From NCBI GenBank assembly GCA_000934665.2, contig KZ538090.1:1-64000 (forward strand): a DNA stretch of 64,000 nucleotides. Direction: 5' to 3'. This document shows, piece after piece, positions 18,071 to 64,000 of the stretch. A model generated the notes under the pieces. It did no database searches and was not told where the DNA came from. It was given only the letters and a program-made list of their open reading frames with translations. Source of the DNA: Catajapyx aquilonaris (taxonomy: Eukaryota). Both the position numbers and the translations under genes were made by a program. Position 1 is the first letter of the stretch. Each line of letters starts with the position of its first letter.

Positions 18071-18112
18071 NNNNNNNNNNNNNNNNNNCTCTCTCTCTCT
18101 CTCTCTCTCTCT
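18071..18112. repeat. Assembly gap (N run) followed by a (CT)n microsatellite
   Basis: Ns at 18071-18088, then CT repeats to about 18112. Confidence 0.95.
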
Positions 18113-27000: not shown

Positions 27001-30000
27001 ATTCGTCGCATATACAGCCCAGGTGCTGATTGGTTTCAGCTACTTTTTTCATATCCTGAATCAAGATAATGTGAGTTGGGAACGTTCTCGGTTGAACCTT
27101 TCTCTATTTTTTGCAAACCGTGTCGTATTGGCATCAATGGCGGAACAATTTTCTTTTTCACTAGATGGAAGGTAGTGTGGACGTGTCGTATCCTATGTGG
27201 AAGGTCAGATCCACGATTGGACGCTTGGACAGAGTCCAGTTGAGAATGGAAGCGGACGTCAAAGAGTTTTTTCTGGAGGAAACAAGGATGGGATTCACAG
27301 AATCGCGAATCATTAACAGTTCTTTACACCTCCGCTTTCTTGGATCCTCTCCCGCAGTGTTCAAGCCAGGAATGCCCTTCGAGAATTACGTGAGTTCCTA
27401 ACCTCAAAATAAATTCAATTTTCAGACAAGCACATCATACACTAAACAATAATCAGTTTGACACTTCAGGTTGAGGATGTCACCATCTCATTGAAGGGAA
27501 TTGTCCGAAACGAGTTACTAGAGTAATCAAATTCGATAGTGCTGGAAATGATTTGTTAGGATTTAGTTAAGCATGAAACTGTATTACTCAAGTTTCGTGT
27601 GCAGGACAATTGTTTCCACTATCGATCTACTTCCAGTCATCTGCGCTATTCTTAGCTGCATTCCATAGACTAGAACAGGGGTTCTAATTGCTTCAAGTCA
27701 TAACGAGTGAATGGTCGTTAATTTTCCGTGAGTTTTCCAGCCTCATTATCACGTTTGCGTAATCCACGTGACACTATAAAACGAAACAATAAGCACTACC
27801 AATTTTGTTGCCTGTAAAAACAAAAATTAAAAATCTCACCGCCTGTTCCCATCACACTGACTAATATATTGAGTCCGATGTTTCTCGCAGGTTGCGGTGT
27901 CCTATCACGACCAGGAGCCAATAGCGAAGGAGACACTAGAAAATTCGAACATACGAGTCGAGATTTACGCAACTGTGGATTCAGGAGGCGCGGTTCAAAT
28001 CCCTGAAATATTCGTGCCCAGCAAAAGAGACTCGTATGGGTTCCATCAGCCATTCGAGACCTGGAACGAGTTTGATGTTCATCGAGGGTGGGAAAAGTAC
28101 CTGCAGGATCAGGTGCACATGAAGTACAGGTCCGAAGGTATTCTGCGAGTCAAATTCGATGTTCCTCCAAGAGCTAGTCAGCTGATTCTTCGAGCGTATT
28201 ATTTCGACGATGAGGGCAACAGAGCTCAGACTGAGATGACGGCCTACGCGTACTATTCACCCAGGAGAAAGTACCTGGGAGTAACTACCAGCACTAAGAA
28301 CGCCCAAATTGGCGAGTACGTCATCTTCCATGTGAAAATCAACTATCCCGTGGAGTCTTTTCACTATTTGGTAACTATATACATGTCTGCAATATCAGGT
28401 CGAATCTTCTTCTAATTGGTGCTCTTTTTTGCAGATTGTATCCAAAGATATCCTGCTGTACGCTGACGAACAGGTGGTAGATGACACTTGGCAAACGATC
28501 ACAACCTTTTCGCTGCCGGTGTCACCCGAAATGGCTCCAAGCTTTCGGATTGTCGTGTATCATGTGACTAGAGAGGGAGAAGTGATTTCTGACAGCCTGT
28601 TTATCCCTGTCAATGGGATCAACCGTCACAAGGTAAGCTTGCCAAACGGGGGAGGTCCCCAAATTATGGTTGTCGCAGTGAATGGGTACGACAATAAGCT
28701 TTCTGCTACAGAGGCTGGGTATAAGGTAGTCACGCTTGACATAAGCACTTTTCCTTTGTGCCATCTACTTCCGCTGAAAGCCTCAATTACACATGCATTC
28801 GCTTTTTGCACTCATCACGCAAAAAAGAGCCTTAATTTGAAGCACTGAATGGTCAAATGTGATGTTGGTGGGCTATTGTTACTGCTAAATAACATACTTC
28901 GTGGGAGAGCATTGTGCCTTTGTGCAGCAAGCTTGTCCCTCAGCTCATTTTGGTATAAACATTGTGCACATCATTGTTCATTATTAATTTCTGCTTCCCC
29001 ATTCACACTGCTGCACCTTATATTGACGCTATTATTTGATCGTCTTCATTACCAGATGAACCTAAGCCTGAACCAAGCCAAGGACAAATCCAAAGACAGC
29101 GTGGAGTTCAAATGCGAGGCCGACGCCGGTGCATTCTACGCAACTTCGGTCCAAAGACTTGTCCGGCACACAATGCAAGCCGGTAACGAGATCAGCAAGG
29201 CCAGTGTGATGGAAGCCCTTCATACATTCGAAAACTACAGCCGTTCGGTGCATAAGGTGATATGGAGGTCTCGCGATGGGAGTTTACCAGACAGAAGCGA
29301 GTACTTCGAGTCCATGAACTACGGCATCGACAGCAACAGGACCTTCACTTTTGCAGGACTGATTGTCCTGACGGATGCGGTTGTGCCTCTGGTGCCCCAC
29401 ACGGGTGAGTGACAGTGACGGTGGACAAGTGGCGATGATGATGGTGACTTGACAGAACTTCGCCCACAGATTACTGCAACGTGTCCAGGGGACTGTATCC
29501 GTGTCTCACGCAGGGATGCTACATTATCGAGAAGAAGTGCGACGGGTTTCCAGACTGCGTTGACGGGTACGATGAGGCCGAATGCCCACCCCCTCACGAC
29601 GATATTATTGAGTTTAGAGAGAATCGGATCAACAGATTTGCGGTATGGCATGAATCTTCTTGACATTGGTTCTTCATATTGTACAAGGAGTCATGAAACG
29701 ATTGTGAATTACAGGATTTCTATGATATTCCTGATGGCGACTGGGCTTGGATGGATGTCCACATTGGACACAGCGCTGTAGAGTGGTACAACATTCCAGT
29801 CCCCAGAATTACTGACAGTTGGTGGGTCAATGGGTTCAGTATCAGCAAGGACCGCGGGTTTGGTATAATCGAAGCTCCAATTCAGGTACAGAACACCCGA
29901 AATGCTGCGTTTCGTTCAGTGCAATGACAACTTGTTTTGTTCACAGTACGACAGCTTCAGGCAATTTATGATGGTTGTGGACGTGCCTCCAGCAATAAGG

Positions 30001-33000
30001 CGAGGTGAAACTTTGGGCATAAGAACCATTTTGTTCAACAGACTGGACAATGAAGTGCTTGTAGTGCTCACTTTGCACGGGTCCGACGACTACAAATTCG
30101 TACGGGCGGGATACGACGGCAGCACTAACAGTTATAACCCAACACTATCAGGAGGTGATCAGCAGCATTTAGTGTGGGTAAGGTCATCCTTTCTGGATAT
30201 CTCGTGAAAAATATGTCAACTATCGTATATGTTATAGATCAGAGGTCAAAGCGAGGAGGAAGTTCGCATACCAATTGCACCTCAAGTAGATCTCGGAACT
30301 ATCGACGTGACAGTATCCGCCTCGACACAAGTCGCACATGACGTCAACACATTCCAAGTTGAAATTCTGGTAAGGCACAAGCATTATGCAAATGAGGTGT
30401 AAACGGCAGTTAAGAAAGACAACGTACTGTACATGCTATCATGACTGATCATTTTGTAGTGCTCACGTAATCACATACTGATCCACTCGTATTACAGTCA
30501 TGATGTGTAACGGAAACTGGCTACATTTAATTTTAAATCAAAAATGGTTTTACGATTTTTATTGCAATTAGACTTTTCAATTATATTATTACACTCGGAC
30601 ATTTTGTTAGGATTCACTAGCTCCTCCTTGCCTATTTCAGCCCGAAGGTGCCACAGTAGCCAAACACACGTCCGTATTTCTGGACCTCAAAAACCGAGCA
30701 ACAGTCCTCCGATTTATGGACATCTTTGTGGAGGAAACACCCATTATTCCGTACAACTACTGGAGGAGATACATCTACGGAAGCCCTATTGCATCAGTCA
30801 CGCTCTGCGGTAAGTCACTTTACATGAAAAGTCATACATACTACAGTCAGTCAGGAGTGGGTGGGCTTGTAGTACTTACAACACGTACCATACAACAATA
30901 GTCTCATTGTCTTTACAGGGGATGTGCTTGGACCGGTGTTTCCAACAACTCCAGTGACAATGGACACACTTCTAGGACGGTCTGGTCGCGGTACCGAGTC
31001 TCGTGTTTTCGACTTGGCTGGAAATCTTTGGATGCTTCATTACCTTCGTCTGACAAATCAGCTCAAGTGGAGCAAAGCTAGGGAAGTGTTCAACTACATG
31101 AACAGCATATTTGCCAACATCATGAAGAGGTACAGTTCACGAGGATGGTTCAAGATGTGGAACATTTCAAAGCCAAGTGTTTGGCTGACTGCATGGGTGA
31201 TACACACATTCAAGCATGCGACCTTTCAAGACTGGGAGAACTATTTCTATATCGAGCCTCAGATATTCAGCCGCAGCATAAGGTGGCTCCTGAATTACCA
31301 GACTGAAAATGGAACTTTCACGGAGACACCATGGTACTCTGTCTACCCACTCAACAAAAAAATGGACCAACGGGTATGCTGCTTACTTTGCCAGTATTAT
31401 AAAAAATGAGCCAATATGGTTTCTGCAGTCCCCCAGGCCACATTATGATGACCCCAACTACAGAGAGCATGACCGCTTCCACAGGCCACATGACCATATC
31501 AAATATCGCAATATCTCACTGACAGCGCAAGTACTCATCACAGTGCATGAAACTATTGAAATGTTAGATGGAAACCTGCGAAGTGAAGCCATTACAGCAA
31601 GGCTTCTTGCGACAAGGTTACAATATCAGCCAATTGAAGACATCACTTGCCAAAGGGCCCAAGTCCCAAATCTTAAAAAACCTTTTTATTGCAAATTCCT
31701 AATCTTGGGAGTCGGGCCTCACAGCCCTGGTGAAGATGCAGGGCCTGTCAACCAGAACTGCCTTAAAATTCAATCATAAACTGTGAAACTCCATATGGAG
31801 CAATGAAGCATACGTGCAGGTTTTTGTCTCTCCTGAAAACTCGCACCTCATGGACTTGAGCCCTTTGGCAAGTGATGTCTTCAATTGTTTTATATACTGT
31901 ATGACTATGACCCACAATAGAATACTTTCATTGCAGGTATCTGGAGCAACAACTCCCACAACTGACAGATGCTTATGAAATTGCAATAACCACATATGCC
32001 TTATGGCTTTGCGACAGTACAGAGAAGGAGACTGCCTTTCAACTGTTAAATTCTGTAAAGCGTGAAGAAGGTATGAATACATGGCTTGTCACTAATCAAA
32101 GGAATTACCAATGATAAAGACACTGGATGGAAAGTAATGTATGGATTTAAATCAGTACATATTCAGTTTCCTCAAATGTAACATATTCACATAAGTTACC
32201 TTTTCTCACTTTGTGTGAGATACAAATCTATGCCACCATTCCACATATACACTGTATATAGCTTCTGCATTTTAATCTCTTACATCCAAAACAGTGTACC
32301 TAATTATGTAACATCACTTCATTACATCTGCTTTGTTTTCAGAGGGCTTAATCTATTGGTCACCCGGCCAAGTTCCCTTCAGCGGCTTCAAACTGGAGAA
32401 CCAAAGACCATTCCTTCTGCCAAAAGACAACCAGTATTGGGACAGTGTGGCAGTGGAGGCTACAGCCTATGCCCTTCTGGTCTACCTCATGCGGGATGGT
32501 GTCACCATTCCTGCTGAGAAGATGGTGTACTGGATGAATTCTGTGCGCCTGAATGATGGAGCTTTCATATCTACACTGGTATTGCAATGTTATAAAAATG
32601 AACAAGCAGATGTGATTTTCAATCCTAAAATGTTGAAAAATCCACTTGCAGGACACAGTGATCGCCTGGCAAGCACTGACTGAGTATGCTTTCCGAGCCA
32701 GACTACGAGATATTACAGACATGAGGGTCACTGTTGAGTCATCCAGTACAGCAAATTTCAGTGAAACCTTACTTATTGGTAACACCAGTTTGGCAACACC
32801 TCAAAGCATGGAGGTAAATCCCTTTCTGCTAAGTCTGTTCTCTTCAAAGAAATATGGAAAACTAAAACTACAGTATATCCAAAAAGTGAAATAGGATGCA
32901 AACATGTCAAATCAATAACACATTTCTTATATCCCAGTTATATCTTCTTGGGTTATTTATGCACACATTGAGAAACTTTAGATAAATTATTGGACTGTTA

Positions 33001-34166
33001 TCATTGGACTGTTACACACTGTTTTAATAATGGGAAAACATGGAAACCTTTGAACTTCAGCCTTTTGCAAGCAACATATCAATTAAAATAAGTTCACATA
33101 AAAAGTTTACCCTACAACATAAAAGTGTAACTAAGCTCATTAACATCATTAAAATTCTAATTACTGCATTTAAAACTGTCACACCAAGCACTTGTGATGT
33201 ATTGACACAATGCAGGTCCAATCACTTCATCCACTTATTCTTAGTCTACCTAATAATTTTAAAATTTACTAATTCACAACTACAAGTAACTTATGCAGTA
33301 CATGTTCATTATTTATTTTCAGATCCCCAATGTTTGGGGCCATATTAATGTAGTAGCCCGTGGAGCAGGGCAAGCCTTGATCCAGATGCACGTCACATTC
33401 GGAGTGGACTATGATGAAATGAAGGACACCCCTCCAAAAGACTGCTTTGAGTTGAAAATCAAAGAGACCTATCACCAGATTCGGAACAGGTCTGCAGTCA
33501 CAATCCAGAGTTGCATGAGGTGGACCCTCTTTGAGGAGTCTGAAGTCAGTGGCGCTGCAGTGCTGGAGATTGAGATACCCACTGGTTACGGACTTTTGCA
33601 GACAGATGCTATCAGGCTAGTTGCAGAGGGGGTTCATCCCACTCTCATGGATGCAAAAACTATGCCAGGAAAAACGATGTGGTTCTTTGAATATGTGAGT
33701 TACTCCCATAAAACTTCAAGCCACTGTACTTTTATTTTGCTACTTCGCACTGGAAACTTGAAAATTTGAAGTAGATTTTTATTTAACTGAGATAATTCAA
33801 ACCCAACAGATACCAGGGAACTGGACCTGTTTCAACCACACGGTTAAGAGATGGCATCCTGTTGCAAACTTGACACAATACAAAGGGGCCTACCTTTATG
33901 AAGCCTATGCTCCAGGTACACTTACCTTACTGTCACAAAATACCTAATTATTATAGTCAAAGTAAATGGTGTTGATGCTCTTTTCAGAACGCTTTGTGAT
34001 GGAAGTCACCCGAGCAGTCCCACTGAATGCCCTCGGCATATGTGAAGTGTGCGCATCATACCAGTGCCCTTATTGCCCCTACTACAGTGTGGCAACTTCA
34101 ATTGTGGCCAGTTTTGGAACAATCCTTGCTTCTCTGATTGCACTGCATTTCAGATGGACCTCTTAG
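21050..34166 (+). CDS. Mcr: Macroglobulin complement-related (Mcr/TEP6)-like, CD109-like thioester-protein family member; 24 exons, 1644 aa, no thioester motif
   Basis: Phase-consistent GT-AG exons: 21050-21234, 24359-24548, 24643-24811, 25237-25307, 26213-26264, 26570-26700, 26768-26944, 27165-27389, 27891-28370, 28435-28632, 29056-29404, 29470-29642, 29715-29885, 29947-30177, 30238-30369, 30641-30809, 30919-31373, 31429-31616, 31937-32070, 32343-32578, 32652-32813, 33323-33694, 33810-33915, 33988-34166 (4935 nt). It has a signal peptide, A2M motifs (YLVVAPAVVRP, FKPGMPF, EMAPSFRIVVY, SVWLTAWV, VEATAYALL, STLDTVIAWQALTEYA), an LDLa module (CDGFPDCVDGYDEAEC), the Mcr-type C-terminal ICEVCASYQCPYCPYY and a hydrophobic tail. 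AATAAA lies at 34243-34248. It may be an Mcr-like paralog rather than the strict ortholog. Confidence 0.92.
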
Positions 34167-34348
34167 CATTTACTGCAATGAAACGCTTACCGCATAATGT
34201 TATGTGACTTCCCCACTACACCTTGAGTTTTAGTACCTTGACAATAAATGAAAGACTTTTTTAAAGGGTGGTCCTATCACTATGCATATATTCCAATATC
34301 ACTTGTACTTTTACAGCATAAAACAAAATTAAGTACCTGGCCAATACC

Positions 34349-35286
34349 TCATCTGCGAGCAAAGTTTTTATCCATAGCAGAACTGGAGCGTTGAATGTTG
34401 TATCGGTTAGACTTGATTCGACCTTCAATGGACCCTTTTGCTGCAGCTTCAGAGAGTTGCTTCCTGAAAAGATAGGTAACAAGCATGATATAATAAATTA
34501 AACATAATCTAACATCTTGCAACATTTGGTCCCTCTCCATGATTTTGGAGAGCGGGCAATTTATGACCTCCAAACGTTGGAGAGGAAAGAACATGAGGGT
34601 AGATTGGGTCAAGATCTCTGAAATAGCTCAGTTAAACTGAGCAAAGACACGTGTGAAAGGAGATGTGGTGGAGGGAAGGAGAGAGTGGTTTGTTTGGAAA
34701 AGTTGGTCAGTGGGAGAGCAGCCTGGCCTTGTGATTATTGGTTGCTTTCTACCACACTCTTCTCCGTTCTCCATACAATTTCAGTGAAGCATAGTGGAGG
34801 GAAAGAATTTCAAGAGTCCTGCCCTCTTCCCACATTTATCTCCAAAATCTCCCAAGAACAAAAAAGTTCCTCTTTCATAAAAAACAAAACCAAAAATGTC
34901 ACCATGACTTACCGAATGAAGGAAGGATCTAAATCCTTCTTGTGGTGCTCCTCCTCCTTTTTCTCTTCCTCTGTCAGGTGTTTCACATTCTTCACTCTCT
35001 GTTCATCTCTCCATTTCGCATTATCCATCATTTCCTTCCTTTTCCTCTCCATCTCTTCCTTGCTCATTCTTGGCCTCTCAGGTTTCTTCCACTGGCTACT
35101 AGACGATGAACTTGATGGTCTGTCATCTCTACTGTCCTTACCACTGATCTTTTTCTTCAAGTTTGTGATTTTGGCAGCCAATAGGCGATCCAAGTCCTTC
35201 TCACTTGAACTCTTTTTCTTCTCTCTCATTCTTGCCTCCTTCTTCCGTGCTTCTTCACTGTTTTGGCTTATCTGCAAGCAAAAAAA

Positions 35287-35330
<44 letters not shown>

Positions 35331-37390
35331 AGCTAGTGTAATGCTTTCAATTTTTTTAAATTATGAGGGTAGGTTAACTCAATAATTTTACCATTTGCTT
35401 GAGGTGTTTCATTTTGACTGGATTACTTAGGATGCGTTTAAGACTCTCCTTTTCTTTCTTTTTGATCTCAAGCAACGGGTCCTCCTGAATTTTGCGCATC
35501 AAGTCAACTTGTTCAGTACCCTTTGAAGCAAAGATAGATGTTGGAGTGCAGTCTGAAATGAAACCAAATATGTATCACTCATATCACTTTTAAATTACTG
35601 CACATTAAGCACACTGTCATGTCACTAACACATTGTAAGGCATCAACTCTTACTAACCAAGGTAATTATATGGTCTCATCAATGTGCTAACATTTGTATT
35701 TAAAAAAAAACTAATGGCAAATGCTTACAGTTTTAACTTTCATGTCAATACATAAATATAATATGTAACAATTATTATTCACTGACTTATCATAAGAAAG
35801 ATATGATATGAAAAGTTTTGCATAAAGGTTGCCTTCACATCAAAGTTTGAGTTTTATGCAAGGCATGCCCAGCCTGAGACAACAGTCACCATAACAACAA
35901 TGACAACACTGATGTACCCTCTGACCCAGGATCCTCCACATGAGAGAAATATGCCGATACTGCCAATGGCATTGAGAAAATAGACAGCTAGGGGGAGGCA
36001 CGGTGGCCGAGATGGTAACGTCTCGGCTTGCTACGGGAAAGGTCCCGGGTTCAAATCCCCACCTGGGAGCAAACCTTTCGCTTGCGTCATTGGGTCGTGA
36101 CCCGCGCCTAAGGAGGCGTCTTGGCAACCTGACCTCCTGGGGGACTGCACCTGGCCCACCGCTGGACAATGCACCTGCACATGTGTCCCCTCCCCAAAAC
36201 CCCCAACCCTTACCCTATTTCCTAGTATTCGTTGCGCCGAAGTTCAAAGTAAATACAATCAGAAAACTGTATGGTGGTCTGCCACCCACCTATAACGACC
36301 AAGTAGTTGTATCACGGGGTAAGGACAAAAAACAAAAAACAAAAAAAAAGACAGCTCAACCAGCGGCCATGACAGTAAAGAGAAAGAATTGCGGGAAATG
36401 TCTCAAATAAGTTTAAAACGAGGCTTTGCTGGGTCAGCAAGTTCATACGAAGATTATATTCAACAAAATATTTAACAAACAGTTTTAGGATCCGGATTTA
36501 GCGTGTCAAAATAGGTTCCAAGGTCAACTTCCGGTACATGCTACTTCCGGTTTCGTGGGCTCTCTACTTGTACAAGCGGGTAACTGTATGATTTAGATTT
36601 TGAAATTAGTTTCCTGAAATAACTACCACAATAACTATCAAAAACCCTCAATTCTGCCAAGTACAAGCAACCACCCAAGAAAACCGCATTTGGAACGTGC
36701 TTTGATTTATGCTGTATTTCCCTCTACCATCATGGTAGCCAAAGGTTTTTTTTCGGCTTTAGGATGATGGTTCTGGCGGAATTGGGTTAAGTGGTCTATT
36801 TTCTCAATGTCATTAGTTACTGCATGCATATTATCTAGGTACTGTACAGTGTTTCAAGTTGGGAGGTTGGCCTTTTCCTGGGATATACAAGGATAAGATA
36901 ATTATGTACATATTGTAATACCATTCCGATGCGTGAAAAATTCAGAATTCAGGAACATGTTTCTCGCGAGAATTTTGGAACTGAAAGATTGTGTACCTAT
37001 CAAAGCTAAACATTTACCAAATTGAATCATACTGTCCCACCCAAAAATAATGCAACCATGTAATCAATCAGAACACCCACCATACTCCACCGAGTTGGAG
37101 AAAGTGGGAACCCCTTTCTCCGCCTGCTGGATCATCTCGAAGGTCTTGTCCACAGGCCTTCCCAGAAGGTACTCCTCTCTGTCCACCAAGGCCGTCGGGC
37201 CCTTGTACATCCACTCCAAGTTGCCCCCATCCTTCTTCCTGAAACGACACTCCCATCAGCACACATGCAAACCACACTGCAAGAGAGTCACCACGACGCA
37301 TAATCTCTGAACCATTCCCGGTACCCATCACATCAGAACTCACTCTCCACTGCCCTCTCCGCCTTCCTTTCTCCCTTTCTCCTCACTCAT
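34349..37390 (-). CDS. CWC25: Pre-mRNA splicing factor CWC25 homolog; 5 exons, 279 aa
   Basis: Exons 37390-37344, 37238-37081, 35552-35392, 35271-34913 and 34463-34349 (840 nt, phases consistent). The motifs LEWMYKGP..VDREEYLLGRPVDK, KIQEDPLLEIKKKE, ILSNPVKMK, EMMDNAKWRDEQR and C-terminal SIEGRIKSNRYNIQRSSSAMDKNFARR match CWC25. Confidence 0.9.
35280..35326. repeat. A11(CA)18 microsatellite, read as (UG)18U11 at the CWC25 intron 3 acceptor
   Basis: Directly visible. The transcript strand reads (TG)18 T11 GCTTGCAG|exon 4. Confidence 0.95.
35990..36348 (+). mobile_element. tRNA-derived SINE with A-rich tail and TSD, antisense within CWC25 intron 2
   Basis: A box TGGCCGAGATGG (about 36004), B box GGTTCAAATCC (about 36048), tail AAAAAACAAAAAACAAAAAAAA, and the direct repeat AGACAGCT at 35982-35989 and 36349-36356. 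Confidence 0.8.
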
Positions 37391-37477
37391 TTCGGCTACT
37401 TCGAAGACAGGAAGGGATGGAAACGGGCTCAAATCGAATGAAACAGGCAAGAGTCAACCAGCTTCCTCAGAAAACAG

Positions 37478-37489
37478 ACGCCATCTTGA
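37478..37489 (-). promoter_or_regulatory. YY1/Pho-type motif CAAGATGGCG near the probable CWC25 transcription start
   Basis: Plus strand GACGCCATCTTG, about 90 nt upstream of the CWC25 ATG. Its ATG opens a short uORF, MASVF*. Confidence 0.4.
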
Positions 37490-37946
37490 AGCAGGGTAGC
37501 CAGCCCCTAAAGATTGTAATGCCCTTCGATAGGATCGTATCCCGCCTTGTTACACAAACAAACAAACAAACAAACAAACAAACAATGGCAACCCCGGAAT
37601 TTAGAACCAAACCCGCGATGGTTTCAAACTACCAAAGGCATTTTGCAGCACAAGTGCTTGCTTCAAATTCAGGGAGCAATAACAATTCATGCAGAATACG
37701 GCAAGGCCGTCAGTATATTGTCATTATAATTATGGAGTAAATCAGTTACGTCAAGGTTACGTACATGTAAATTAATACGTTTGAATTAATTTGCAACAGA
37801 GTGAAGGCTACTTGGCGATGTTACAAGTTGATAGTAGGAGCAGTCAAGTGTGGTCTTGAATTCCTGATAATTTTAATTTGTGTTACATGTCATTTATTGT
37901 TGGCTATAGAGTAAAAATGGTAAAAACTGCTGTTTTAAATCCAGTG

Positions 37947-40020
37947 TTATGTAGGACCATCCTTGCTGTTGTTCTCGCAGGGGCAGCTGGCAACGTCTTT
38001 CTTTTCAGCTCCATAACCGGGTAGCCTGTGGCATGTCAGATCTGGAATGGTGGCTCCGTACATTGATAAAGGGTAAGTGGGCAAGACGCATATGTGGTCA
38101 ATGCGGGGCGGTGCATGCCGTTCCACCCTCAAGTACTGGTCTTTTGGGAACGCCCTGTTGAAATATACAGTATGAAGTGATGATGTAGTTACAGAATGCA
38201 AATATAATAAAATACATTCTATGTGTGCTTATACTGTACTACCAAAATTGTCCTAATACTTAAATCCATATTCTTATACAAGTTCCTGATCATAAAGAAT
38301 GTGTACATGATATTTTGTTAGCACTCTATTAATTTGAGCCTCTCAATTATTATCGGTTGATTGAATATTGTCACCATGACAACCCCTTTATCACAATTCC
38401 CTTCTCCAAACACAACTTTCACTATTTTACTGATTGAATCAATTGCTAATTGCAGTTTCAGCCTAGTCTAATATTGCAACAAAATGAGAGATTACCTGTG
38501 ACCAAGGTGGGTAGTTGACAAGTACACATCATCAGGGTCAAAGTCTTTCTTTCTTATTTGTCCATGCACGACATCTCTTGGGCGATAGCCTTTGTAGCTA
38601 AGGGGCCACACATCATACGGTCCTGCCAGTTTACCCTCTGCGATAACTGTCTCTGTCTCACAGGTCAAACCTGGCGTCCTATTCTCATATGCATCGCTGC
38701 CAATGATATGCAAACATTAATGTACTTTTTCTTCTCTGCACTGCTCTTATATTCAAGCACGATTTATAATTATCATTCTCTTTTAACATAATGCAAATTA
38801 AATAATATTTCAGACTGACACCTACTAATGCAAGTGTACAGTGGGATTAGATCACTCCCCTTTTGACACCAGCCTGCTTGTTCCCATACCCACTTTTCAA
38901 ATCTTTGCTACTATATTGTAAATTGCCATAGCATGTACCAGTAAGTCATTCTTTGAGGTCCTGATTTGATTGGACCCCACTTCAGCCAGTCAACCTTTTG
39001 GCCTGTAGTACGCATCTGGCGGTGTTCCCATTCTGTGCCCACCTGTTGCCACAATTCTGGACGGAGCCTGTACCTAGGTTCCCTCACTGTCACCTGTCAG
39101 GAGTCGTTGATTTAAAAAAAAAAAAAGTCAACGCAGACCTGATTTAAATGTGGAATGTCATACTTGTGGTGCAAAGTATTCCTGAGCCAATGCCTTGACA
39201 GGAGGTAAAACTGGACGGCTATGCAAGTGACCAGCATTATCAGTCATATACTGATATGAAGTGGTCCATTGGTGGGTCTTGACTGGGTCTTTGGGACACA
39301 CACATATCTTGGATTCAGGTGGGCAGCGTGAGTCTAGAGCACATTTCAGTTTAGCAATGCGGTCCAAGTACTATAAAAATAGGAAGATGGTCAGATGCAA
39401 TCACTGAACGGGAAACTCTTGATAAAATTTATTGCCACTATTTAACACATGACTTGACAAAATTTAACCAGACAAAAGCAACTTGCATCTAGGTACAAAG
39501 GTGGAACAGAGTGCAATGTAAACTGGTATAAAATTGCATTCTGCCCAAATCTTAAAATATCAGTACCAAAAATATGTAGTATAATAGGGGAAAATTTGTG
39601 TAATCAGTCGAATATCATGAACCTTGTTATTTGCCACAAACTCATTGGCTTATCATAGCAATCAAATTCTCACTCATCTGTATACAATATTACTAACTAC
39701 ATCTGCTGATAGGATAGGAATTGCTTAGTTTACAGGAAGAATATCCCAACCCAACAGCAGTACTGTACCTCCTGGTCAAGAGGCTCAAAGCAGCATGGAT
39801 TCTCAGGGCGAAACTCATCTATTTCCTCACACGGAAAGACCACAGCTGCCTGGTTGCAGTCAAAGTTTTGCGCAAGATCAGTTACTGTTGGAGGCTTGGG
39901 TAGTGGGGCGTCCCCTAGTGGTTCAGGCCCATGATCACAAATGCTCTGATTAATTTCTCTGGCTTGTTGACATTCCCCCAATTTTTCAGGTGAAGCCTCC
40001 TCACACAAGCCTCCTTCCAT
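37947..40020 (-). CDS. Uncharacterized 340-aa protein, 5 exons, with remote resemblance to SPATA48/SPMIP7 (sperm microtubule inner protein)
   Basis: Exons 40020-39769, 39370-39164, 39093-38939, 38696-38496 and 38154-37947 join in frame through GT-AG sites (1023 nt). AATAAA lies at 37898-37893. Segments include PRYRLRPELWQQVGTEWEHRQMR, PLSYKGYRP and STTHLGHRAFPKDQYLRVERHAPP. The gene model is solid; the family assignment is from memory only. Confidence 0.75.
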
Positions 40021-40070
40021 CTTCCTGAGCGTAGCAGTGTCCCTCCAACCACTGTTGACTATATGGTTGC

Positions 40071-42104
40071 CTAGTCTACGTTCAACACTGAATATTTGTT
40101 GCCAATAGGGCCAGCCCTTTCAGCCTTCTTTTTCTGGTTGGCTACACTGTTCTCCTTCATACTTTTTTCACACTTCTGCTGTATTTTTGGGGCAAGATTA
40201 GCGACAAATGTGTAAAGCCTCACAAAAATACTGTGGAGGCAAGAGGATTTACCCAGTAGACCCTCAATGTGTTTGTTAAAGTCCTTACATTTGTTTAAGG
40301 ATTCCACTGCATTGTAGAGGAAAGTTCCACTAAAAAATGCAGCTGGAGTTTGACTTTGAAATGGGTGACCCAGAAGCGAGTTAAGATATTCTGTTACTAG
40401 ATAGCATGTTTGAAACTGCGACATTTGGTGAGTGATGCTTGCATCAAATGGTGAGTGTATGGAGCGCATCATGCTCTGGATTTGCTGCAGTGGCCGTAGT
40501 TGTGATGCTGCAGCAAGACAATGCATTTCACATCCAACAAGCTGCAACCCATCTTGGGAGCACACTGACTTTTTTGAGGAACACACAACTGAACGCCAAA
40601 TGAGGCAGAGCAATAAAGCAGCCACCTCACAGCGAGTCACAAGGGGATCTGCATATCTTGCATAATAAAGCAGTGTACACAAAAATAAGCGTGATTCAGA
40701 GGAAAACTTGCCCAGGCACTGATATTCATGACTACTCATTCGCACTGAGGTGCAAAAAATTTGACTCCTCTCCTCATCACTGATCAACCTCAATTGGCTC
40801 AAATTAGCAAGTTTACACTCAGACTTAAGAAATAGTATGTGCTTTATCATGCCCATACCTTTGCGTAGGTAACATGTGACTACGCGCTTTTCAGCTGGCA
40901 AAAGAAGACCACAAAGTGACTCTAACAATGGTAAAACACCAGTATAGGCTGTGGGCATATTTCGAGATTCAACCTGGAGGCTGAGGATGGCCTTTTGGTG
41001 ACGCAAAATATCAAGCAGGGTGTGTTTCAATTGACCATGCATAAACTCCAAAAGAAACCAGTCAGGCACATCAGTTGCTGTGGAAGGAGGTGCACTGGCA
41101 TTCAAGCCCAGAATGGGAAGCAGTGGAGATGATTCCCTGTCGAAAGTCTCAGTGGCAGCCTTCACAAGTGAAAGTAAAAGCTTCTTATCTAGCACATATC
41201 TTGAAACCTGAAAGGAGAAACGAATAATTATTAAGGCCTTTCAGCATGGTGTCTAGTGACCAAGTGCAGACTTGCCTCTTCTAGTCATTCAGAATACCAG
41301 AATACTAACCTCCCTCACAGCTGAACCACTGGAGTGACTTGAGATCCATTTCATAGTCCCTCGAATCCGCCCCTGTGAACTGCATGATTCTGAAGAGTTT
41401 AAGATGTAAGCGTAAAACCTAGCAAACTCTTCTGGGCGTATGTAGTCATTTCCCAGAACAACACTAAGCACTGGCACCACCTTCAAGTCCATTTTGAACA
41501 TTGCCAACAGTTGACCAATTCGGAAAATTTGACAGTTAATCCCATTTTCTGATGGGATTATGCCGCGTACACTGAGTGTGTCCAGTGGGATGACATCAAC
41601 TCCAGCCAAGAAGAAATCTGAGTCATTGCTGAGAACAGGGCAGTTGAGGTACCGGGCCACTGCTGCAATTTCTTGGTCGGCTTCATTTTCACTCTGGGCA
41701 TATTTTATCCCCATATCATCCATAACCTTCATCAAGGTCATTTTAGCCAATGGAGGAGCAAATCCAGGCATGGTCCGGTTCTCCGGATGAGCACGGACAC
41801 TTGTTCGGATGCGCTCCTCAGTCCTCCTCAGCATAGTGGCCAACTTACGAAGTTCAAATGCACCATCAAAAATCACATAGCACTCAACATTACATGACTT
41901 GAAGCGGGTGAAGATGTCCCGTGAAATGCAACTGTATGCGTCATAGTCACCTCCAAACGCAGCATTGAGTGTCTCAGACCAAGGTAGGAGAACATGAAGG
42001 AAATTGAGGCCATCAATGATGCAGCTGCTGTCACGTAGAGTGTAGTTAGTCAGTAATGATTGCGAATGGCTCTGGACGAATGTGGTCAAGCCTGGGACTC
42101 CCAT
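40071..42104 (-). CDS. ASTE1: Asteroid homolog (ASTE1; XPG/FEN1-like PIN nuclease), paralog B; 2 coding exons, 643 aa
   Basis: Exons 42104-41310 and 41207-40071 (phase 0 intron). Motifs MGVPGLTTFV, IIDGLN, GGDYDAY, VIFDG, EADQEIAAVA..LNCPVLSNDSDF and LGNDY, plus C-terminal HQMSQFQ..LNSLLGHPF..FFSGTFLYN. An acceptor TTTTACAG just before the ATG implies a 5'UTR intron (candidate donor at 42902). Confidence 0.9.
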
Positions 42105-42193
42105 TTCTGTAAAAGGAAGCAAAATGTATAAAAACATGCCACCGTTCAGGCAACTATAATTGGCACATACCTCAGCAATGTCAATAAAATCTA

Positions 42194-42446
42194 CGAGGGG
42201 TTAGTCACTCGGGGAACACCGTGTACACTGCGAGTAGAGCACCACTACGGCGTTCCCCCGGTGTTCCAGAGGATTCTGGACTAATTATTGTGGGACAAGG
42301 GGGGTGCCGGCAACACACGGGAAATTACGACAGAAATTACCGGGGAGCACCTGCGGGAACACCGACAGAACACCTGAGAACACCAGGTAGTTGGAACACC
42401 AGTGTACACTTTTTGGTCTAGTGACTAACCTTGGACTAACCCCTCG
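42194..42446. mobile_element. MITE (253 bp) with 13-bp TIRs and 8-bp TSD
   Basis: TIR CGAGGGGTTAGTC / GACTAACCCCTCG; TSD AAAATCTA at 42186-42193 and 42447-42454; internal GAACACC repeats. Confidence 0.85.
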
Positions 42447-42981
42447 AAAATCTAATTCCAGACAATTACAATGCTGCCAATACCAGTGATATCACTAACT
42501 GCAGTAGAACATTTATATATTATTCTTATCAAATCAATTTCTTATCAGCTCCATGTAGTGATATAGCTACTTTATAAACATTAATTTTCCTGTTAGTGGG
42601 TTTTCCCCACTCCATGGGGAATCCCCCCACAAATAATGGCAAGCGTTTGTCATCACCACATCTCAGTGCCCACAAGTTTGCCTTCATTAGGCCTTGGAGT
42701 TCCCTTTATTCAGCATTACTTCAAAAATTGCAAATATCAAAATACTCAAACTTTTCATTATCATCTGGGTACAGTCAAACCCGAGCAGCGTTGCCAACCT
42801 ATACGGTAATTTACGCCTCTGTACGGTATACGGTAAAATCCCTTTTGTGTACTCAAAATAAAATAAAAATTAATATAATAAAATGATATCTGACGTGCTT
42901 ACAGTACAGGAGGATTCCGCTGTTTGTCAGTTACATTCACCCAAGCTTGTGCGACCTTGAACCAATTGTTTTTGTTTTTTT

Positions 42982-44565: not shown

Positions 44566-47247
44566 CTACTGTGCCCTTGCCAAAACTGAAAAACGATTGG
44601 ACTCTTCTTCATATTCCAGTTCTTCGCTTGAACTTATCTCCACCTCATTGATTTCAACTGGCACTTCTTTTTTCTGCACCCTCTTCTTTTTCTTTCTATG
44701 CTTCATTTTCATTTTGTCCAGATCATCAGGACTCAAATCTTTTACACACTGCACAAAATACGAATGCAACTCTGTTCCCTTCCCAAGAAGATGCTCTATG
44801 TATGCATGTGGATTAGGCCTACGCAACAACTCACAGATCAGCCTGTAATATAAGGAGCCATGAAACACACACGTAGGGTCGGTGTTCAAATATGGGCATC
44901 CTAAGAGTAAGTTCAAGTTGTGTAGGTGGTAAAATGTGGCTTGTAGTTGTGAATACGCATGGAAGGCGGTTATGTTTATGACTGAGTGATTCCTGTCCCA
45001 CTTGTTTTCCACTTGAAATAAAGGCTGAAGATTTTTTAGAGCATTCTGAGACTCAGTTCGCGCACACTGTGTGTTTCTAAGGACAGATCTATGTTTCCTT
45101 ACTGCTTGTTGTGAAAACATGCAAAATACAGCTGCAACAAGTTGATATTCATTTGGCTTAGTAGTACTTAACCAATGTAACAACGAGACTGCAAACATTT
45201 GGAGATCATCACAAAGTGACCTGATCAAATGCAGATTTTCTGGGCTTAGATGAAGCACTGACTCAAGAAACCCCCTTCTCTCCTTAACTGTCATTCTTCT
45301 CATGGCATGCAAACCTGGAACACTTCCAAATTCTGGCACATGGTCAGATGGCATCAGTTTTATACACATGTATGATCTTTGCTTGCGGACATAGCATTTA
45401 ACTTGTGATGAATCAAGTATTCCACAAGTAACCCGCAAGACTGGCAGACAATGAGTGTGAGAACTTTGCCAAGATACCTCCTCAATTTGACACAGTAAAA
45501 GTATGAATCCACGATGCAACACATCCATGCAGATTGATGGGATTTTGAATTGATGAAGTTCTTCCCAAAACCATTCCGGCAATGATGTATCACACACACT
45601 GCCTTCACACTCCGATTCAGCTTCATCATCCTCACTATCAGATGATTCAGACTCAGAAGCCTCTCCTTCTTCAAGGTCTTCTACATCTTCGCCCTCAGTT
45701 TCAACACCACCATCATCACTCCTATCTTCTTCCTCACATGTTTCAAGGGTGTCAGTCAAATCCTCCGGTACCGTCACATACTCGGTGTCAATCTTGACTC
45801 CCAAATATGGTGCCAAATTTGTGTGGGAGCTAAGATACCACTTGACTGAACTGTAGATCAATGCAGCTATGCTTTTCCTCTGCTCTTTCTTGGCACATCG
45901 TAATATCTGTGGAAAAACAAAATTTCAAATGTATCAACTGCGGTGTTCCAATTGAAGTTTGCATAGTGGTTCACAATGCTTGCATTAAGCTGCTTATTTT
46001 CATGCAGCTACTTTTGGGGATAACAAAAACCTGTTAAGATTTGACTGAATTAATAAATTTTTTCAAACAAATGCAGGGTTTAATAAGTACCGTAACGTTA
46101 GGTGCCAATTGGTTACAGTCGGCACACTCTAATGCCCGATTGCACCAATGAAATTACCGATTCTATAGCTCCTAACAGATCATTAGCACATGTTAAAAGA
46201 TCCATGTTAATAATCCATTATGAGCTATCAGATCGATAATTTTGGTTGGTGCAATCAAGCATAAGAATAGCAACTGGGGTGGAGATGAATTTCCCCCAGC
46301 TTCTCCACAACTCCCACCATTACGCGTACACTTATATGATCTTGCCTATCCCCACCAACTGGACAATCTTCCCATATCTTAAAAATATACAGCCAGGTGG
46401 TGGTAAAACAATGCTGCACGAGACTTTCATCACTATCCTTACAGTGAGCCAACTGTATACATGCAGGCAAATAAGATATCCTCAATGGATAGGAACATAA
46501 TTGAAATCTGTGGTCTGGACCAATTCTTCCATTATAACTATCCCAGCTGTTTTGATAACCACAACGACTGACTCCTAAATCATGAGCAGCTTACTGCAAA
46601 AAATCGCTAACAACAAACAATTCCATAGAACATGCTAGGTTGCATTTAAAGTCTGTAGCTAGGTCAATTGCCATTAATTTCCTTTCCTTATTGTTAAGCA
46701 AGTCAAAACAAAATCATAATTAAGTGACACGAATACAGGCCAATGTTCATTTTTCCTGAAGCGGTATTTTGCGTAGTGCAAGGAACTACATGAAAATAAC
46801 AGCTTCTGGTGAAAGTTCTAATTATAAGGTTTGTAAGACTTGGAATACACTGCATTTGTTGCATGTCACAGCTGTCAAAGTTGAAAACCCATCTCTTTAA
46901 TTCCACAAATAAAATAAAACCTTTTGATGCTAACTCTTGAAAACATTACATCCCTTAATACCATAGTCTAGGAACATGTTTTGTTTTGGTGAATAGAGCA
47001 AACTATTCATGTTGCAGATGCATTCTAAATGAACACATGCAAGGTTTTTGTCTTCCTCCAGTAATAAAGCTTATGGGCAATCACAACTTTTCTGATTTGT
47101 GTGCTTTGTTCCCATGAATGACGTAATACCTTCATCACCAATGGCACAATCTGAGAAGAACATGTGCCAAAGCAGTATGACTCTTAATTCAATAACCAAA
47201 ATTCTTTGGTGACAATTAGGATTGGCAACAGAATATCCTTATATGAG

Positions 47248-47303
<56 letters not shown>

Positions 47304-48298
47304 GTTGTTGTTATTATTATTATTGCAACTTTAAAATGTGCATTGTGTTTCAGATATTAACATGGCCTCACGATGGAAACGTAATAGTGATTTCTCTACT
47401 CATTGACAGATGACACCCAATTTTTTAAAAATGGAAGTCGGGTGAAAATATGAAAACCCATTCCTAGTTATGATTGCAACTGCTTTTTTCCAAATAAGAT
47501 ATGTAATGCTCTTACCAATTTGACTGCAGATGCTAGCGTCCTGTTCTGAAAACACCGGAACAACCCTATAATCCTTCTGTGCTGCTCATTCAGGGCATGT
47601 AGTCCTCTCTTGGGCACATTGCGGTACAACGTCTGACATATTTCACGTGGCATCTGATCATTTCCTGCCATGGTGGCCACCAGTGGCAGAAGCGAGGCAT
47701 CCACGCCACCAAAGTAGTCCAGCAGGCGCTTCATGCGGTACACTTCACACTTCAGAAAGGTAGAGCCATCTTCTCTCTGACTGACTTGACGATCAAGGCT
47801 CTTCAGCAGGATAACTTCTACATTGAAGATGCAGAAGTCCGAGTCATTGCTCATTACAGCACAGTTCAACCCCCGTGCAAGTGCCACAATTTCTCTGTCT
47901 GCATCTAGGCTGCACTGGGCCACTGGCACTTTCATCTCTTTCAGTGTATCCACAAAGACAATCCGAGTCAACAATGGCATGACATAGCGAACCTTTCCCT
48001 TTGACTTTGATTTCGTCACACACACGAGCTTTTTCCTAAGCCTCTGCCTCTTGATCTGTGTGGATCCATCCATCACAACATAAGGAGTGACTCCACACTC
48101 CTTCAAGCGGGTAAAGAACTTTTTGACTTTGGAAGCGTAGACGTGGTAGTCACCTCCACATGCAGCAACGGGTGTGTTGCACAGCTGATACATCAGGTTG
48201 GATCCATCTATTACGACACTGCAGTTGCAGAGAGAATGACGGCAGAGGAGCCTCTTGCGATACCGCTTGATTAGACTTGACAGACCCAACACCCCCAT
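44566..48298 (-). CDS. ASTE1: Asteroid homolog (ASTE1; PIN nuclease), paralog A; 2 coding exons, 707 aa
   Basis: Exons 48298-47516 and 45906-44566 (phase 0, same position as in paralog B). Motifs MGVLGLSSLI, VVIDGSN, GGDYHVY, VVMDG, DADREIVALA..LNCAVMSNDSDF and AGNDQ, an acidic linker, and HAYSQLQ..LNLLLGCPY..VFHGSLYY. Confidence 0.9.
46128..46266. mobile_element. Palindromic MITE, intact copy, in the asteroid-A intron
   Basis: Self-complementary ends ATGCCCGATTGCACCAATGAAATTA / TAATTTTGGTTGGTGCAATCAAGCAT; a second copy lies at 42982-43733. Confidence 0.7.
47250..47324. repeat. (TAT)n/(TGT)n microsatellite
   Basis: Directly visible trinucleotide run in the asteroid-A intron. Confidence 0.95.
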
Positions 48299-49418: not shown

Positions 49419-49624
49419 GTCACGGCACTCGTTAGCGCCCTTTGCCCCGAGGCTCTGGATGACCCATCTGTGGATAGAAATGCTTGTAATATTCCTTCGT
49501 GTGACCTCGTAGGGCAGTGTAATTAGCCGCGGCGGGTAAGGACACGGGAAGGGCAGACCAAACTCGCTTTAGAAAGAATGAGTAGTAACGCAATGGTCTC
49601 TATATGGTCTATTGTAGATGCAAG

Positions 49625-51311
49625 ATGAACTCAGGTGAGCACTATTTCTTTGGCCTCTGCAATGCGTGCAAGCAGCCCCCTCCACGGAACACCACCCTGA
49701 AGGGGTGTGACAAGTGCCAGATGGTGTTCTATTGCAACCGTGAACACCAAGATCAGGACAGGAGCAAGCATGAACAACTGTGCAACTTCATCGTTAAATC
49801 TGGAGGGCAGGAGGGTCTGAGGCTGTGTCGCATTGAAGGGGATTGCAACTTGTCAAACTGGCAGCAGGTCAGGATGGAATCCATGCAAAAGGCAGAAGCC
49901 GCACTCAAGAGGCCCCTCAGCACAGCAGAGAGAGAAATATTCCTCTTCCCACCAATCTGTGAAGTGTGTGGGACGCATGGGGAGGACCTGAGGACATGCA
50001 ATAGTTGTCAAAGCACTGCCTTCTGCTGCCGGGCACATTTGGAGATAATATTTGATACGCATCTCCGGTGAGTATCGTACTCAGAAAGTCAGCATTTCTG
50101 CGCGAGCATAATATATTGCTTGGGAAATGGGGCTGGATTTGCCCAACTGACTTGACATGTCATTTTCTAGCAGCTCTGTGCATAATTGCATTGTTACTTA
50201 CATTATGACACATTCACAGTATGTTTATACCTTGTGATCATGGAAAGTTACTCCTTGTTATTGGTTTACCAGTATACCAGTATAGTTGTACAAGTAACAC
50301 ATACAATGTAGACAATGTGTACCTCTTAACAGGTGGTGTCCATGGCTGAAGAATGCTATTGACTGCATTGGATGTTCAATCCCAGATTCATCCAGGCCTG
50401 CCATCCCACTGAATCATGTACCCCCACATGTTCCCATGAGCCCTCAGGAACCTTTGGTAGCTTTTCCCAAATCCATGGTGTCACTGCTAACTGGCAAGAA
50501 TGGATGTGGGCCTGTGGATCCTCAACTGGCCTTGATAAGTGAAGGCCTGTCCTTCTCTCTGACACTCTTGCATGTACTTCATAAGACAGGAGTGAACCAG
50601 GGTAAAGCTCTGGTCAAAGCAGAAGAACTGACAGTACATGTAATTGGAGCAGAGGATCCCACAGAGTGTGGGGTGAATGTGAGATGGGAAGATACATTCC
50701 ATTATCTCCCCTGCCTCAAAACGCTTAACCTGATCTTTATAGGACCAACGCTTCACAGTGACCTCCCCTTGAAAATGGAGATTCCCATGGGTACAATATG
50801 CAAAGAATGCTACCAGGAAGGACGGGAACTCAACATGGAGTTTTTGAGAATGCCATACCATGCATACGTGCAAGGGGGAAAGCAAGAAGAATCCCTCAAA
50901 GCCAACAACAAAGTTAGCCCTTCCACCAGCAATGAAGAATCACAAGACCTGGGTGAACCAGAAGTGAAAGGAGATAGCCCTGTTGAAAATAACTGGAAGG
51001 TCCATACCCCTGATGTGCTGGTGGCTTACAACTGTGGTTTTAGTGACAGGGACAGTCCCTGGGGCCCCACTCTCCCACTCCTGCTTGGTTGGAACTCAAC
51101 GCCACTGATTCTAACTGGATACTCTATAGGCGAGATGATGCAAGACTTGATTGGGCTTCAGCGACACTGTCAGGGAGAAGTTCAAGTGTTGATCACACCT
51201 CATCAAAACCCATTCAGGAGCCTCAGGCCAGTTCGAGACTGGCTCAAAGAAGATGGAATCCCTGTGTTTTTTCTAAATAGCCACTATGCAGTGGTGTGCA
51301 AGCCTCAATGA
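49625..51311 (+). CDS. Double MYND zinc-finger protein with an MSS51/ZMYND15-like C-terminal domain; 2 exons, 473 aa
   Basis: Exons 49625-50067 and 50333-51311 (phase 2, GTGAGT/AACAG). First finger CNAC..LKGCDKCQMVFYCNREHQDQDRSKHEQLC; second finger CEVC..CNSCQSTAFCCRAH..HLRWC. The C-domain reads SEGLSFSLTL, LTVHVIGAE, LNLIFIGP, PDVLVAYNCGF, PLILTGYS, NPFRSLRP. Confidence 0.85.
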
Positions 51312-63500: not shown

Positions 63501-63896
63501 ACCATATGAGAAGATCCACTTCATATTGTCGTACTTGAGCATCCCCATCATTGGGAGCATGGTCCCTAGGATGGCCTTCAAGAAGGGAACTATACCAAAC
63601 ACATTGACAGAGGCCAGAGTAGCCATTGTCTGCACCAAGAAAAACTGTGGCACCACTCCCGGCTGAAATTTAAGCAAAAGTCCCTCCATGACTTCATGGC
63701 AAAATCGCTGGCCCAAAGCCACAAGTATTCCTGAGGCCGGCTTCTGGTAGTCTGGAATAACATCGCCAGTTATGGTGATTTCATTCACAGCTAGGGTTAC
63801 TAGAGCTGGCACTTCATTTGGGTCTATAAAGTCCACTTCTTCTTTGCAGATGGACTCCAAGGCACAGAGGAAGACTACTCTCTGTTGCACTGCCAG
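51593..63896 (-). CDS. MROH1: Maestro HEAT-like repeat protein 1 (MROH1/HEATR7A), multi-exon; the 5' end lies beyond the right edge of the window
   Basis: Many in-phase exons, for example 63896-63503 (FGIVPFLKAILGTMLPMMG), 62308-62157 (KFSEAISDYLVN), KNHCEVLRCFDIL, MLWPHLLEY, HLDIVLARLE, LLVPRCTDP, LLLHLNDQSPQVVKACK, 51908-51806, and last exon 51738-51593 (LLKDPSKEVRVKAAEA..FG*). Confidence 0.92.
57229..57999 (+). mobile_element. Degenerate, internally deleted mariner transposon in an MROH1 intron
   Basis: Long imperfect TIRs GAGGGTCATTTTAAAATTAAGTTCCGATGAGCTGT versus the reverse complement GAGGGCTATTTTTTAACTAAGTTCCGATGAGCTGT. A relic transposase C-terminus KMVPRYDK*LNREGDYVEK lies at about 57840-57900, and a decayed YSPDL-like FSHDL at about 57635. 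Confidence 0.8.
58614..58676 (-). other. U12-type (minor spliceosome) GT-AG intron in MROH1, 63 nt
   Basis: Donor GTATCCTTT, branch site TTCCTTAAT (58632-58624) close to the 3' end, no polypyrimidine tract. The phase 2 join restores LDTLTSLL-KLPPKQ. Confidence 0.88.
61582..61813. mobile_element. pogo/Tigger-type MITE relic, spanning an N gap at 61759-61769
   Basis: Imperfect TIRs TACTGCATTTGAAGGCATATAAAATGCA versus the reverse complement TGCTGTATTTGATGGCAAATAAGACACA; internal TATAAGACGCAC-like repeats. Confidence 0.5.
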
Positions 63897-64000
63897 CTGA
63901 AAATTAATAAGAACGCAAGGATTAAAGCCACCTATCACATACCCAGAAAAGTCAAGCAATAAAATTATAATTGAGGAAACAGACTGCCATTTTAATGACC

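Follow-up and report, generated by a model that had tools for sequence, protein, structure and literature searches.

The Adh-Adhr locus is an example of a dicistronic gene pair with a long first cistron, the ChAT/VAChT locus is a pair with a shared promoter and leader, and the membrane/secreted switch of immunoglobulin mu and intronic polyadenylation represent the choice between splicing and polyadenylation (polyA) within one gene. Dicistronic pairs of Drosophila melanogaster that also have alternative monocistronic forms have been catalogued in FlyBase (Crosby et al. 2015, PMC4528330). For Adh-Adhr, that account cites Brogna and Ashburner 1997. Same-strand overlaps between a 3' untranslated region (UTR) and a 5' UTR are described as too common in Drosophila for FlyBase to flag, and 130 Drosophila genes as sharing a promoter and 5' non-coding exons (PMC4528330). 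In this study, we analysed the first 64,000 nucleotides of contig KZ538090.1 from the Catajapyx aquilonaris assembly GCA_000934665.2 (hereafter the window). On its minus strand, the gene asteroid-B is followed shortly after its stop codon by the start of a proposed five-exon gene without known relatives (the orphan gene, exons E1 to E5). RNA-type sequence runs without a break from asteroid-B coding sequence through the whole of E1, and we tentatively propose that the two genes overlap in tandem and that the orphan has a start site of its own.

RNA over the end of asteroid-B

The observation that carries the overlap comes from a single public run, X1, which contains the locus with 0.39 of words and has no recorded kind; no run recorded as RNA was found to contain it. 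In four other genes (asteroid-A, asteroid-B, the CWC25 splicing-factor gene and a macroglobulin-like gene), seven introns that end in GT..AG or CT..AC are skipped by X1 contigs at the exon borders, and because of these joints the run behaves as assembled RNA. The contig in question and the features around it are as follows.

39512-40740, strand not given by the contig: RNA-type contig of run X1, 1229 nt, placed over its full length with 4 letter differences, no gaps and no loose ends
40071-41207, minus strand: last coding exon of asteroid-B, an open frame that includes the TAG at 40073-40071
40021-40070, minus strand: gap of 50 nt that separates the stop of asteroid-B from the ATG of the orphan and is free of ATGs and polyA hexamers; its AG at 40026-40025, 4 nt ahead of the orphan ATG, belongs to a weak acceptor-like ctcag/ read from sequence only
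39769-40020, minus strand: E1, 84 codons, acidic and Cys/Pro-rich, GC 0.50
39371-39768, minus strand: proposed intron 1, 398 nt, GC 0.34, GAG/gtacag...tatttttatag/, donor GT at 39768-39767
39428-39433, minus strand: AATAAA, which is the first canonical polyA signal past the end of asteroid-B coding sequence and precedes the E2 acceptor by 57 nt

The contig spans asteroid-B coding sequence from 40740, the TAG, the 50-nt gap, the whole of E1 and the unspliced 39768 donor, and it extends 257 nt into intron 1. Since it is unbroken from asteroid-B coding sequence through E1, E1 lies within the asteroid-B 3' UTR. An earlier note on this DNA had proposed a second role for exon 1, that of asteroid 3' UTR, and the proposal is borne out by this one contig, collinear from 40740 through E1 to 39512. 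There is thus direct support for at least one transcript form in which E1 is asteroid-B 3' UTR and the 39768 donor is unused. The contig gives neither strand, ends nor molecule identity, and it does not prove that the sequence comes from a single molecule. The depths of the X1 contigs (11.1 for 39512-40740 and about 5 farther upstream) were left unused, there being one figure per contig. A joint between 39769 and 39370 is absent among the seven joints listed in X1, whose contigs leave 37508-39511, that is, E2 to E5 and the AATAAA, uncovered; this stretch and a second one without cover, at 42017-42517, are uninformative on expression.

The sequence around the junction agrees with the earlier note in other respects as well. 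The asteroid-B TAG ending at 40071 and the same-strand ATG at 40020 in good context can both be read in the minus-strand sequence. This ATG is the first past the asteroid-B stop, and its context is ggaagATGg, with A at -3 and G at +4. The note had found no AATAAA in the gap and the first one at 39433-39428, inside intron 1, and indeed neither the 50-nt gap nor E1 contains AATAAA or ATTAAA. The only variant hexamer ahead of the AATAAA is a rare AATAGA at 39823. Because no variant hexamer lies between 39823 and 39433, the simplest reading would be that the asteroid-B message ends at about 39.4 kb, with AATAAA 39433 as its predicted signal. The resulting UTR of about 660 nt would match the long 3' UTR of asteroid-A, which is covered by RNA over at least 766 nt (44565 down to 43800; GC 0.33). 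The contig ends at 39512, 79 nt short of the AATAAA, and carries no tail. The putative signal falls within 39371-39768, a predicted removable intron in which a CTGAC branch-like site can also be read at 39394-39390.

asteroid-B itself is modelled as two coding exons on the minus strand with 643 codons in total. In addition to the last exon, the model has these parts.

41310-42104, minus strand: coding exon 1, open frame from the ATG at 42104-42102, with an XPG/PIN-like N-terminal part; the exon end is set by the RNA joint
41208-41309, minus strand: intron of 102 nt, GAG/gttagt...cctttcag/, splice sites as read; contig joint 41204->41307 (cut +3), CT..AC ends
42107-42170, minus strand: candidate leader intron of 64 nt, GAG/gtatgt...ttttacag/AA ATG, as read from the sequence

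The 102-nt intron is skipped exactly by an RNA-type contig. The candidate leader intron would have a strong donor and an acceptor 3 nt ahead of the ATG at 42104. Coding exon 1 has five weak Pfam matches (XPG_I_2, PIN_2, XPG_N, XPG_I and PIN), each below its cut-off, the best being XPG_I_2 with 20.5 bits (cut-off 24.2, E 3.8e-4). Among 8000 scored candidates, three proteins match the last exon at E<=0.001, with 21-23% identity and E values from 1.8e-8 to 2.8e-7. They are 629-641 aa long, each has PF00752 and PF27698, and one is named 'protein asteroid [Acyrthosiphon pisum]' (pea aphid; 21% identity, E 9.5e-8). The same exon is 25% identical to the last exon of asteroid-A (E 3e-21), whose N-terminal exon passes the XPG_N cut-off (25.3 bits vs 22). 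On the basis of the three distant matches, the XPG/PIN matches below cut-off and the likeness to asteroid-A, we assign asteroid-B to the asteroid/ASTE1 type of the XPG-PIN-like nuclease family. Both the C-terminal likeness to annotated asteroid proteins and the length of about 640 aa hold for it.

The two asteroid genes are tandem paralogues on the minus strand (44566-48290 and 40071-42104), and as their C-terminal exons are only 25% identical, their duplication is old. asteroid-A, whose last exon occupies 45906-44566 on the minus strand, contains a long acidic Ser/Glu/Asp insert. Three X1 contigs, at 42923, 43045 and 43191, match the region between the two genes in part and continue into unlike sequence; they are probably transcribed repeats or mobile-element copies.

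The proposed orphan gene

Downstream of E1, the orphan model continues through four further exons to its own 3' signals.

39164-39370, minus strand: E2, 69 codons, phase 0 at both ends, with an in-frame TAG immediately ahead of the acceptor
38939-39093, minus strand: E3, 155 nt, Trp-rich and basic
38496-38696, minus strand: E4, 201 nt
37947-38154, minus strand: E5, 208 nt, in which the TAA at 37949-37947 ends the frame
37872-37898, minus strand: orphan 3' signals, AATAAA at 37898-37893 and ATTAAA at 37877-37872, 49 and 70 nt past the stop

The earlier claim that the 84-codon exon joins four further exons in phase is upheld at the level of the sequence. E1 to E5 add up to 1023 nt, or 340 codons plus TAA, and all four introns (398, 70, 242 and 341 nt, in order) are GT-AG. 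The span given for the gene, 39164-40140, was too short, as it takes in only E1 and E2, whereas the unit reaches the stop at 37947 and the AATAAA at 37898-37893. This AATAAA and the following ATTAAA likely mark the 3' end of the predicted unit. The model thus has a start and a stop joined by an uninterrupted spliced frame, its splice sites are canonical, and a polyA signal follows. The choice of start is narrow: between the asteroid-B stop and E2, the ATG at 40020 is the only one that reaches a phase-0 donor (39886 or 39769), barring a trivial 2-codon exon at 39488.

The case for E1 to E5 being real exons rests on composition, which is better evidence than frame length. GC ranges from 0.47 to 0.53 among the five exons and from 0.31 to 0.35 among the four introns (pooled 0.500 vs 0.332, a difference of 0.168), and when the exon mask was shifted circularly round the 2074-nt unit, 6 of the 2073 shifts equalled the observed contrast. 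When the sequence was dinucleotide-shuffled, a first-ATG frame of at least 84 codons, as in E1, arose 50 times in one set of 5000 and 16 times in another (0.3-1%); at random window positions it was found in 875 of 20000 cases. A stop-free codon score, trained on the other genes of the window, is positive in four of the five exons (E1 0.099, E3 0.084, E4 0.040, E5 0.033 and E2 -0.035), and the value of E1 would rank 12th among 334 open frames of at least 60 codons. The genuine asteroid exons score between -0.02 and 0.05, no better than the orphan exons, and codon bias is therefore weak in this genome.

Several observations weigh against the proposed gene. Shuffling the locus 300 times gave a spliced chain of at least 1023 nt in 5 cases, and 44 of the 115 real 2.2-kb tiles into which the window was cut contain one as well, many of these tiles holding genes or lying antisense to genes. 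The chain search was a dynamic programming procedure that allows any four GT..AG introns (best at the locus, 1131 nt). Spliced-frame length alone is poor evidence for a gene. Of the seven donors confirmed by RNA in the window, six (gtgagt, gtaagt, gtgggt, gttagt or gtaaga) are stronger than those of the model (gtacag, gtatga, gtacat and gtaatc), and the seventh reads gtacac. The make-up of E1 (pI 4.05, no Trp or Tyr) is unlike that of E2 to E5, which are basic and aromatic-rich and contain 21 Trp plus Tyr. All four differences between contig and genome sit in the 252-nt E1, with none in 667 nt of asteroid-B coding sequence (40074-40740) and none in 257 nt of intron 1. Two of them are synonymous, two are non-synonymous and none creates a stop, so the E1 frame is open in a second haplotype; the differences fit weak constraint, and the exon does not look strongly constrained. 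There is no promoter evidence of any kind. No relative of any orphan exon was found in any library searched, and tblastn of the spliced protein against the window finds only itself, the next best match having an E value of 2.0, that is, no paralogue.

The predicted product is 340 aa long and hydrophilic, with a GRAVY of -0.73, a pI of 5.7, 37 Pro and 17 Cys, and sequence analysis found no hydrophobic or membrane segment, no signal-like N-terminus and no internal repeat. Relatives were sought with single exons of 51-84 aa in libraries that lack close relatives of this arthropod-like genome, so the sensitivity of the searches was low. In Pfam, none of the five exons matched at E<=1, and among PDB sequences the best E value with E2, E3, E4 and E5 was 0.16. 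E4 had no match among longer proteins in a word-indexed search of 5.8 billion proteins, E3 and E4 had none in JGI metagenome contigs, and in the ESM Atlas the best score of E4 was 0.86 and E1 had no usable match. When E5 was compared exhaustively with 1.84 billion representatives by HMMER, it had a single match (E 1.2e-4), judged spurious. It was rejected as a relative: the protein has 640 aa and the match lies inside a tandem Pro/Val-rich repeat. The ESM recognition values of E4 (1744) and E1 (1394) are below the 2300 reached by most known families, which does not decide whether the gene is real. Within the window, blastn of 37300-40100 against the rest gave one 32-nt match (E 0.55), and since blastn and tblastn are both blank, there is no orphan remnant behind asteroid-A.

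The weight of these negatives can be gauged from genes that do have relatives. A 337-aa exon with an MSS51_C match of 5e-31 in Pfam was also without a match in the word-indexed search, so negatives from that search mean little for this genome. Library negatives in general are of limited weight, because the queries were single exons, the relatives of asteroid-B are only 21-23% identical and the MSS51_C exon was blank. We therefore use 'lineage-restricted' as a cautious label for the orphan.

Routes by which the orphan might be expressed

The explanation that we favour, and to which we give slightly less than even chances, is a real, lineage-restricted five-exon gene in tandem overlap with asteroid-B and with a start site of its own. 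The asteroid-B message passes its TAG, orphan E1 and the unspliced 39768 donor, and most likely ends at AATAAA 39433, which lies upstream of the branch region of intron 1 by about 40 nt. Within this mRNA, E1 is 3' UTR and carries a silent downstream frame of 96 codons. In another tissue or stage, the orphan would most likely be made from its own start site, at or inside the end of the last asteroid-B exon; the E1 donor would then be spliced to E2, thereby removing the asteroid polyA site. We infer four elements of this account, namely the asteroid polyA site, the splicing of E1 to E5, the orphan start site and orphan expression. The route is ranked first because it requires no unusual translation, and because the RNA that was seen is asteroid-B mRNA with a long UTR. 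The earlier note had offered a promoter inside asteroid coding sequence as its alternative, and we consider this at least as likely as its dicistronic model.

That dicistronic model is a splice-versus-polyadenylation switch, in which cleavage at about 39.4 kb would give asteroid-B alone, and use of the 39768 donor would give a dicistronic mRNA of asteroid-B and orphan, the latter being translated by internal entry or re-initiation. We consider it unlikely. The 50-nt gap without an ATG is inside the range of -34 to 319 nt reported for polycistronic-only loci of Drosophila, and, according to the catalogue, the monocistronic form of the 5' gene usually ends at an upstream polyA site and most pairs misfit scanning, so that internal ribosome entry sites may be common (PMC4528330). 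At the locus itself, 57 nt separate the AATAAA from the E2 acceptor, a distance at which the two signals could physically compete, and the RNA passes from asteroid coding sequence into E1 without interruption. However, the sole contig across the 39768 donor is unspliced, and no molecule was seen with both coding regions, the contig linking asteroid-B coding sequence to E1 only. Furthermore, the first cistron of 643 codons is rich in AUGs. In eukaryotic translation, a long first cistron of this kind excludes leaky scanning and makes re-initiation unlikely; given its 643 codons, the second cistron would need internal entry.

Another unlikely explanation keeps E2 to E5 as a real gene and takes E1 to be asteroid-B 3' UTR with a frame that is open by chance. 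The gene would start downstream of the asteroid polyA site or from an unseen leader, and translation would begin at an internal ATG in E2 (codon 128). This would account for the divergent composition of E1, its holding all four contig differences, its weak donor and its unspliced state in the available RNA, and open frames of at least 110 codons are common, with 54 in the 64-kb window. On the other hand, the GC of E1 (0.50) is exon-like rather than that of local UTR and intron (0.33), and it falls right past the donor; its codon score is the highest of the five exons. In E2, 43 open codons precede the internal ATG and the frame closes exactly at the acceptor, and richness in Cys and Pro continues over the join of E1 and E2.

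Somewhat less probable than either of these is a larger proposal that builds on the switch. The asteroid-B polyA site and the orphan intron-1 branch and acceptor, predicted to lie within about 60 nt of each other, would form a natural two-gene splice-versus-polyadenylation switch with a long first cistron, in which E1 serves both as UTR and as coding exon and the orphan was possibly born by extension of an old 3' UTR. If this is true, cleavage would yield a nuclease-family mRNA with an 84-codon exon hidden in its 3' UTR, and splicing would attach a lineage-specific second coding region.

It is also doubtful, and to a slightly greater degree, that there is no gene at all and that the model is a chance chain of frames in GC-richer blocks, for example an old mobile-element remnant. 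The lack of a homologue in the libraries searched, the frequency of chains of this length in shuffles and real tiles and the ESM recognition values of E4 and E1 under 2300 are all in its favour. The exon mask, however, coincides with the GC blocks in a manner equalled by few shifts, all phases fit, a polyA signal lies 49 nt past the stop, and the window holds no repeat or second copy. The most improbable route is a shared leader, a non-coding exon ending at 42171 that would be spliced either to the asteroid-B acceptor or over the whole gene to ctcag/ at 40025 to give a monocistronic orphan mRNA, comparable to the 130 Drosophila genes mentioned above. Both ATGs stand directly behind an AG, and the candidate leader would have a strong donor. 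Set against the seven RNA-confirmed acceptors, however, the one at 40025 is poor in its pyrimidine tract, the contig passes straight over it and the leader intron is without RNA support.

For the overlapping gene with its own start site, as for the dicistronic message and the shared leader, AATAAA 39433 and the branch-like site at 39394-39390 may be near enough to compete on any read-through transcript.

Some further candidates were tried and rejected. A gene on the plus strand would have at best a chain of 819 nt, and the frames on that strand score between about 0.02 and -0.18. As a core-promoter motif, a TCAGT about 70 nt ahead of the orphan ATG was found, which is expected by chance. For operon processing by a spliced leader, no sign of a leader was found in contig ends or Rfam. 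E2 to E5 as an alternative C-terminus of asteroid-B was dismissed because asteroid-B is already of full length relative to its relatives and E1 is in a different frame.

Surroundings and comparison with known systems

On the minus strand, from high to low coordinates, the genes are asteroid-A, asteroid-B, the proposed orphan and the CWC25 splicing-factor gene. These four are tightly packed, as the first exon of CWC25 begins less than 500 nt past the orphan stop. The other genes seen in the window are given below together with CWC25.

34464-37476, minus strand: CWC25 gene (PF12542) with three RNA-confirmed introns
49589-51308, plus strand: MSS51/ZMYND17-like gene (zf-MYND 6e-12, MSS51_C 5e-31)
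about 24000-34214, plus strand: alpha-2-macroglobulin/TEP-like gene (TED domain 3.8e-22) with short RNA-confirmed introns at 33695-33809 and 33916-33987
52880-63998, minus strand: Maestro-type HEAT-repeat gene (HEAT_Maestro_2, 3e-30), extending beyond the end of the window

Two runs of N, at 18071-18088 (18 bases) and 61759-61769 (11 bases), are assembly gaps or masked stretches, and Rfam has no match over the whole window.

If the orphan is real, the locus would show in compact form how the 3' UTR of one gene can contain the first coding exon of another in its entirety. The polyA site of the upstream gene would sit where the downstream gene must splice, making the interplay of cleavage and splicing between neighbours directly testable, and a candidate would be added to the lineage-restricted genes. 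Should the overlap alone be borne out, it is nothing unusual for a compact arthropod genome.

The locus resembles the dicistronic pairs of Drosophila in having two unrelated coding regions on the same strand in an arthropod-like animal. The 50-nt gap is within the published range cited above, and in the catalogue the upstream gene can likewise use its own polyA site (PMC4528330). In contrast to those pairs, the first coding intron of the downstream gene is here predicted to contain the upstream polyA signal, which would make splicing and cleavage mutually exclusive. Moreover, the orphan has no known relatives, and an mRNA that contains both coding regions is only proposed. As in same-strand tandem overlaps, the asteroid-B transcript reaches over the start of the orphan model; it differs in covering not just a 5' UTR but the whole 84-codon first coding exon and at least 257 nt of intron 1. 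As in shared-leader pairs, there is a candidate donor upstream of the asteroid-B ATG and an AG 4 nt ahead of the orphan ATG, but the orphan acceptor is weak and the join of leader to orphan is only a candidate.

The locus can also be set beside the immunoglobulin mu switch, in which, as may be the case here, a polyA signal within an intron competes with the removal of that intron. There, the C-terminus of one protein is changed, whereas here a second, unrelated coding region would be attached. Like the taxonomically restricted genes of arthropods, the orphan has a spliced frame, a coding-like composition and no detectable relative in Pfam, PDB, the 1.84-billion-protein library, the ESM Atlas or metagenome contigs. 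It differs from them in that its orphan status is weakly founded, as conserved neighbours also match little and the queries were single exons. The arrangement as a whole belongs to the known compact classes of arthropods, namely same-strand overlaps, dicistronic pairs and shared leaders. What appears to be particular to this locus is that the overlap takes in a whole predicted coding exon and that the first coding intron of the orphan contains the putative polyA signal of asteroid-B.

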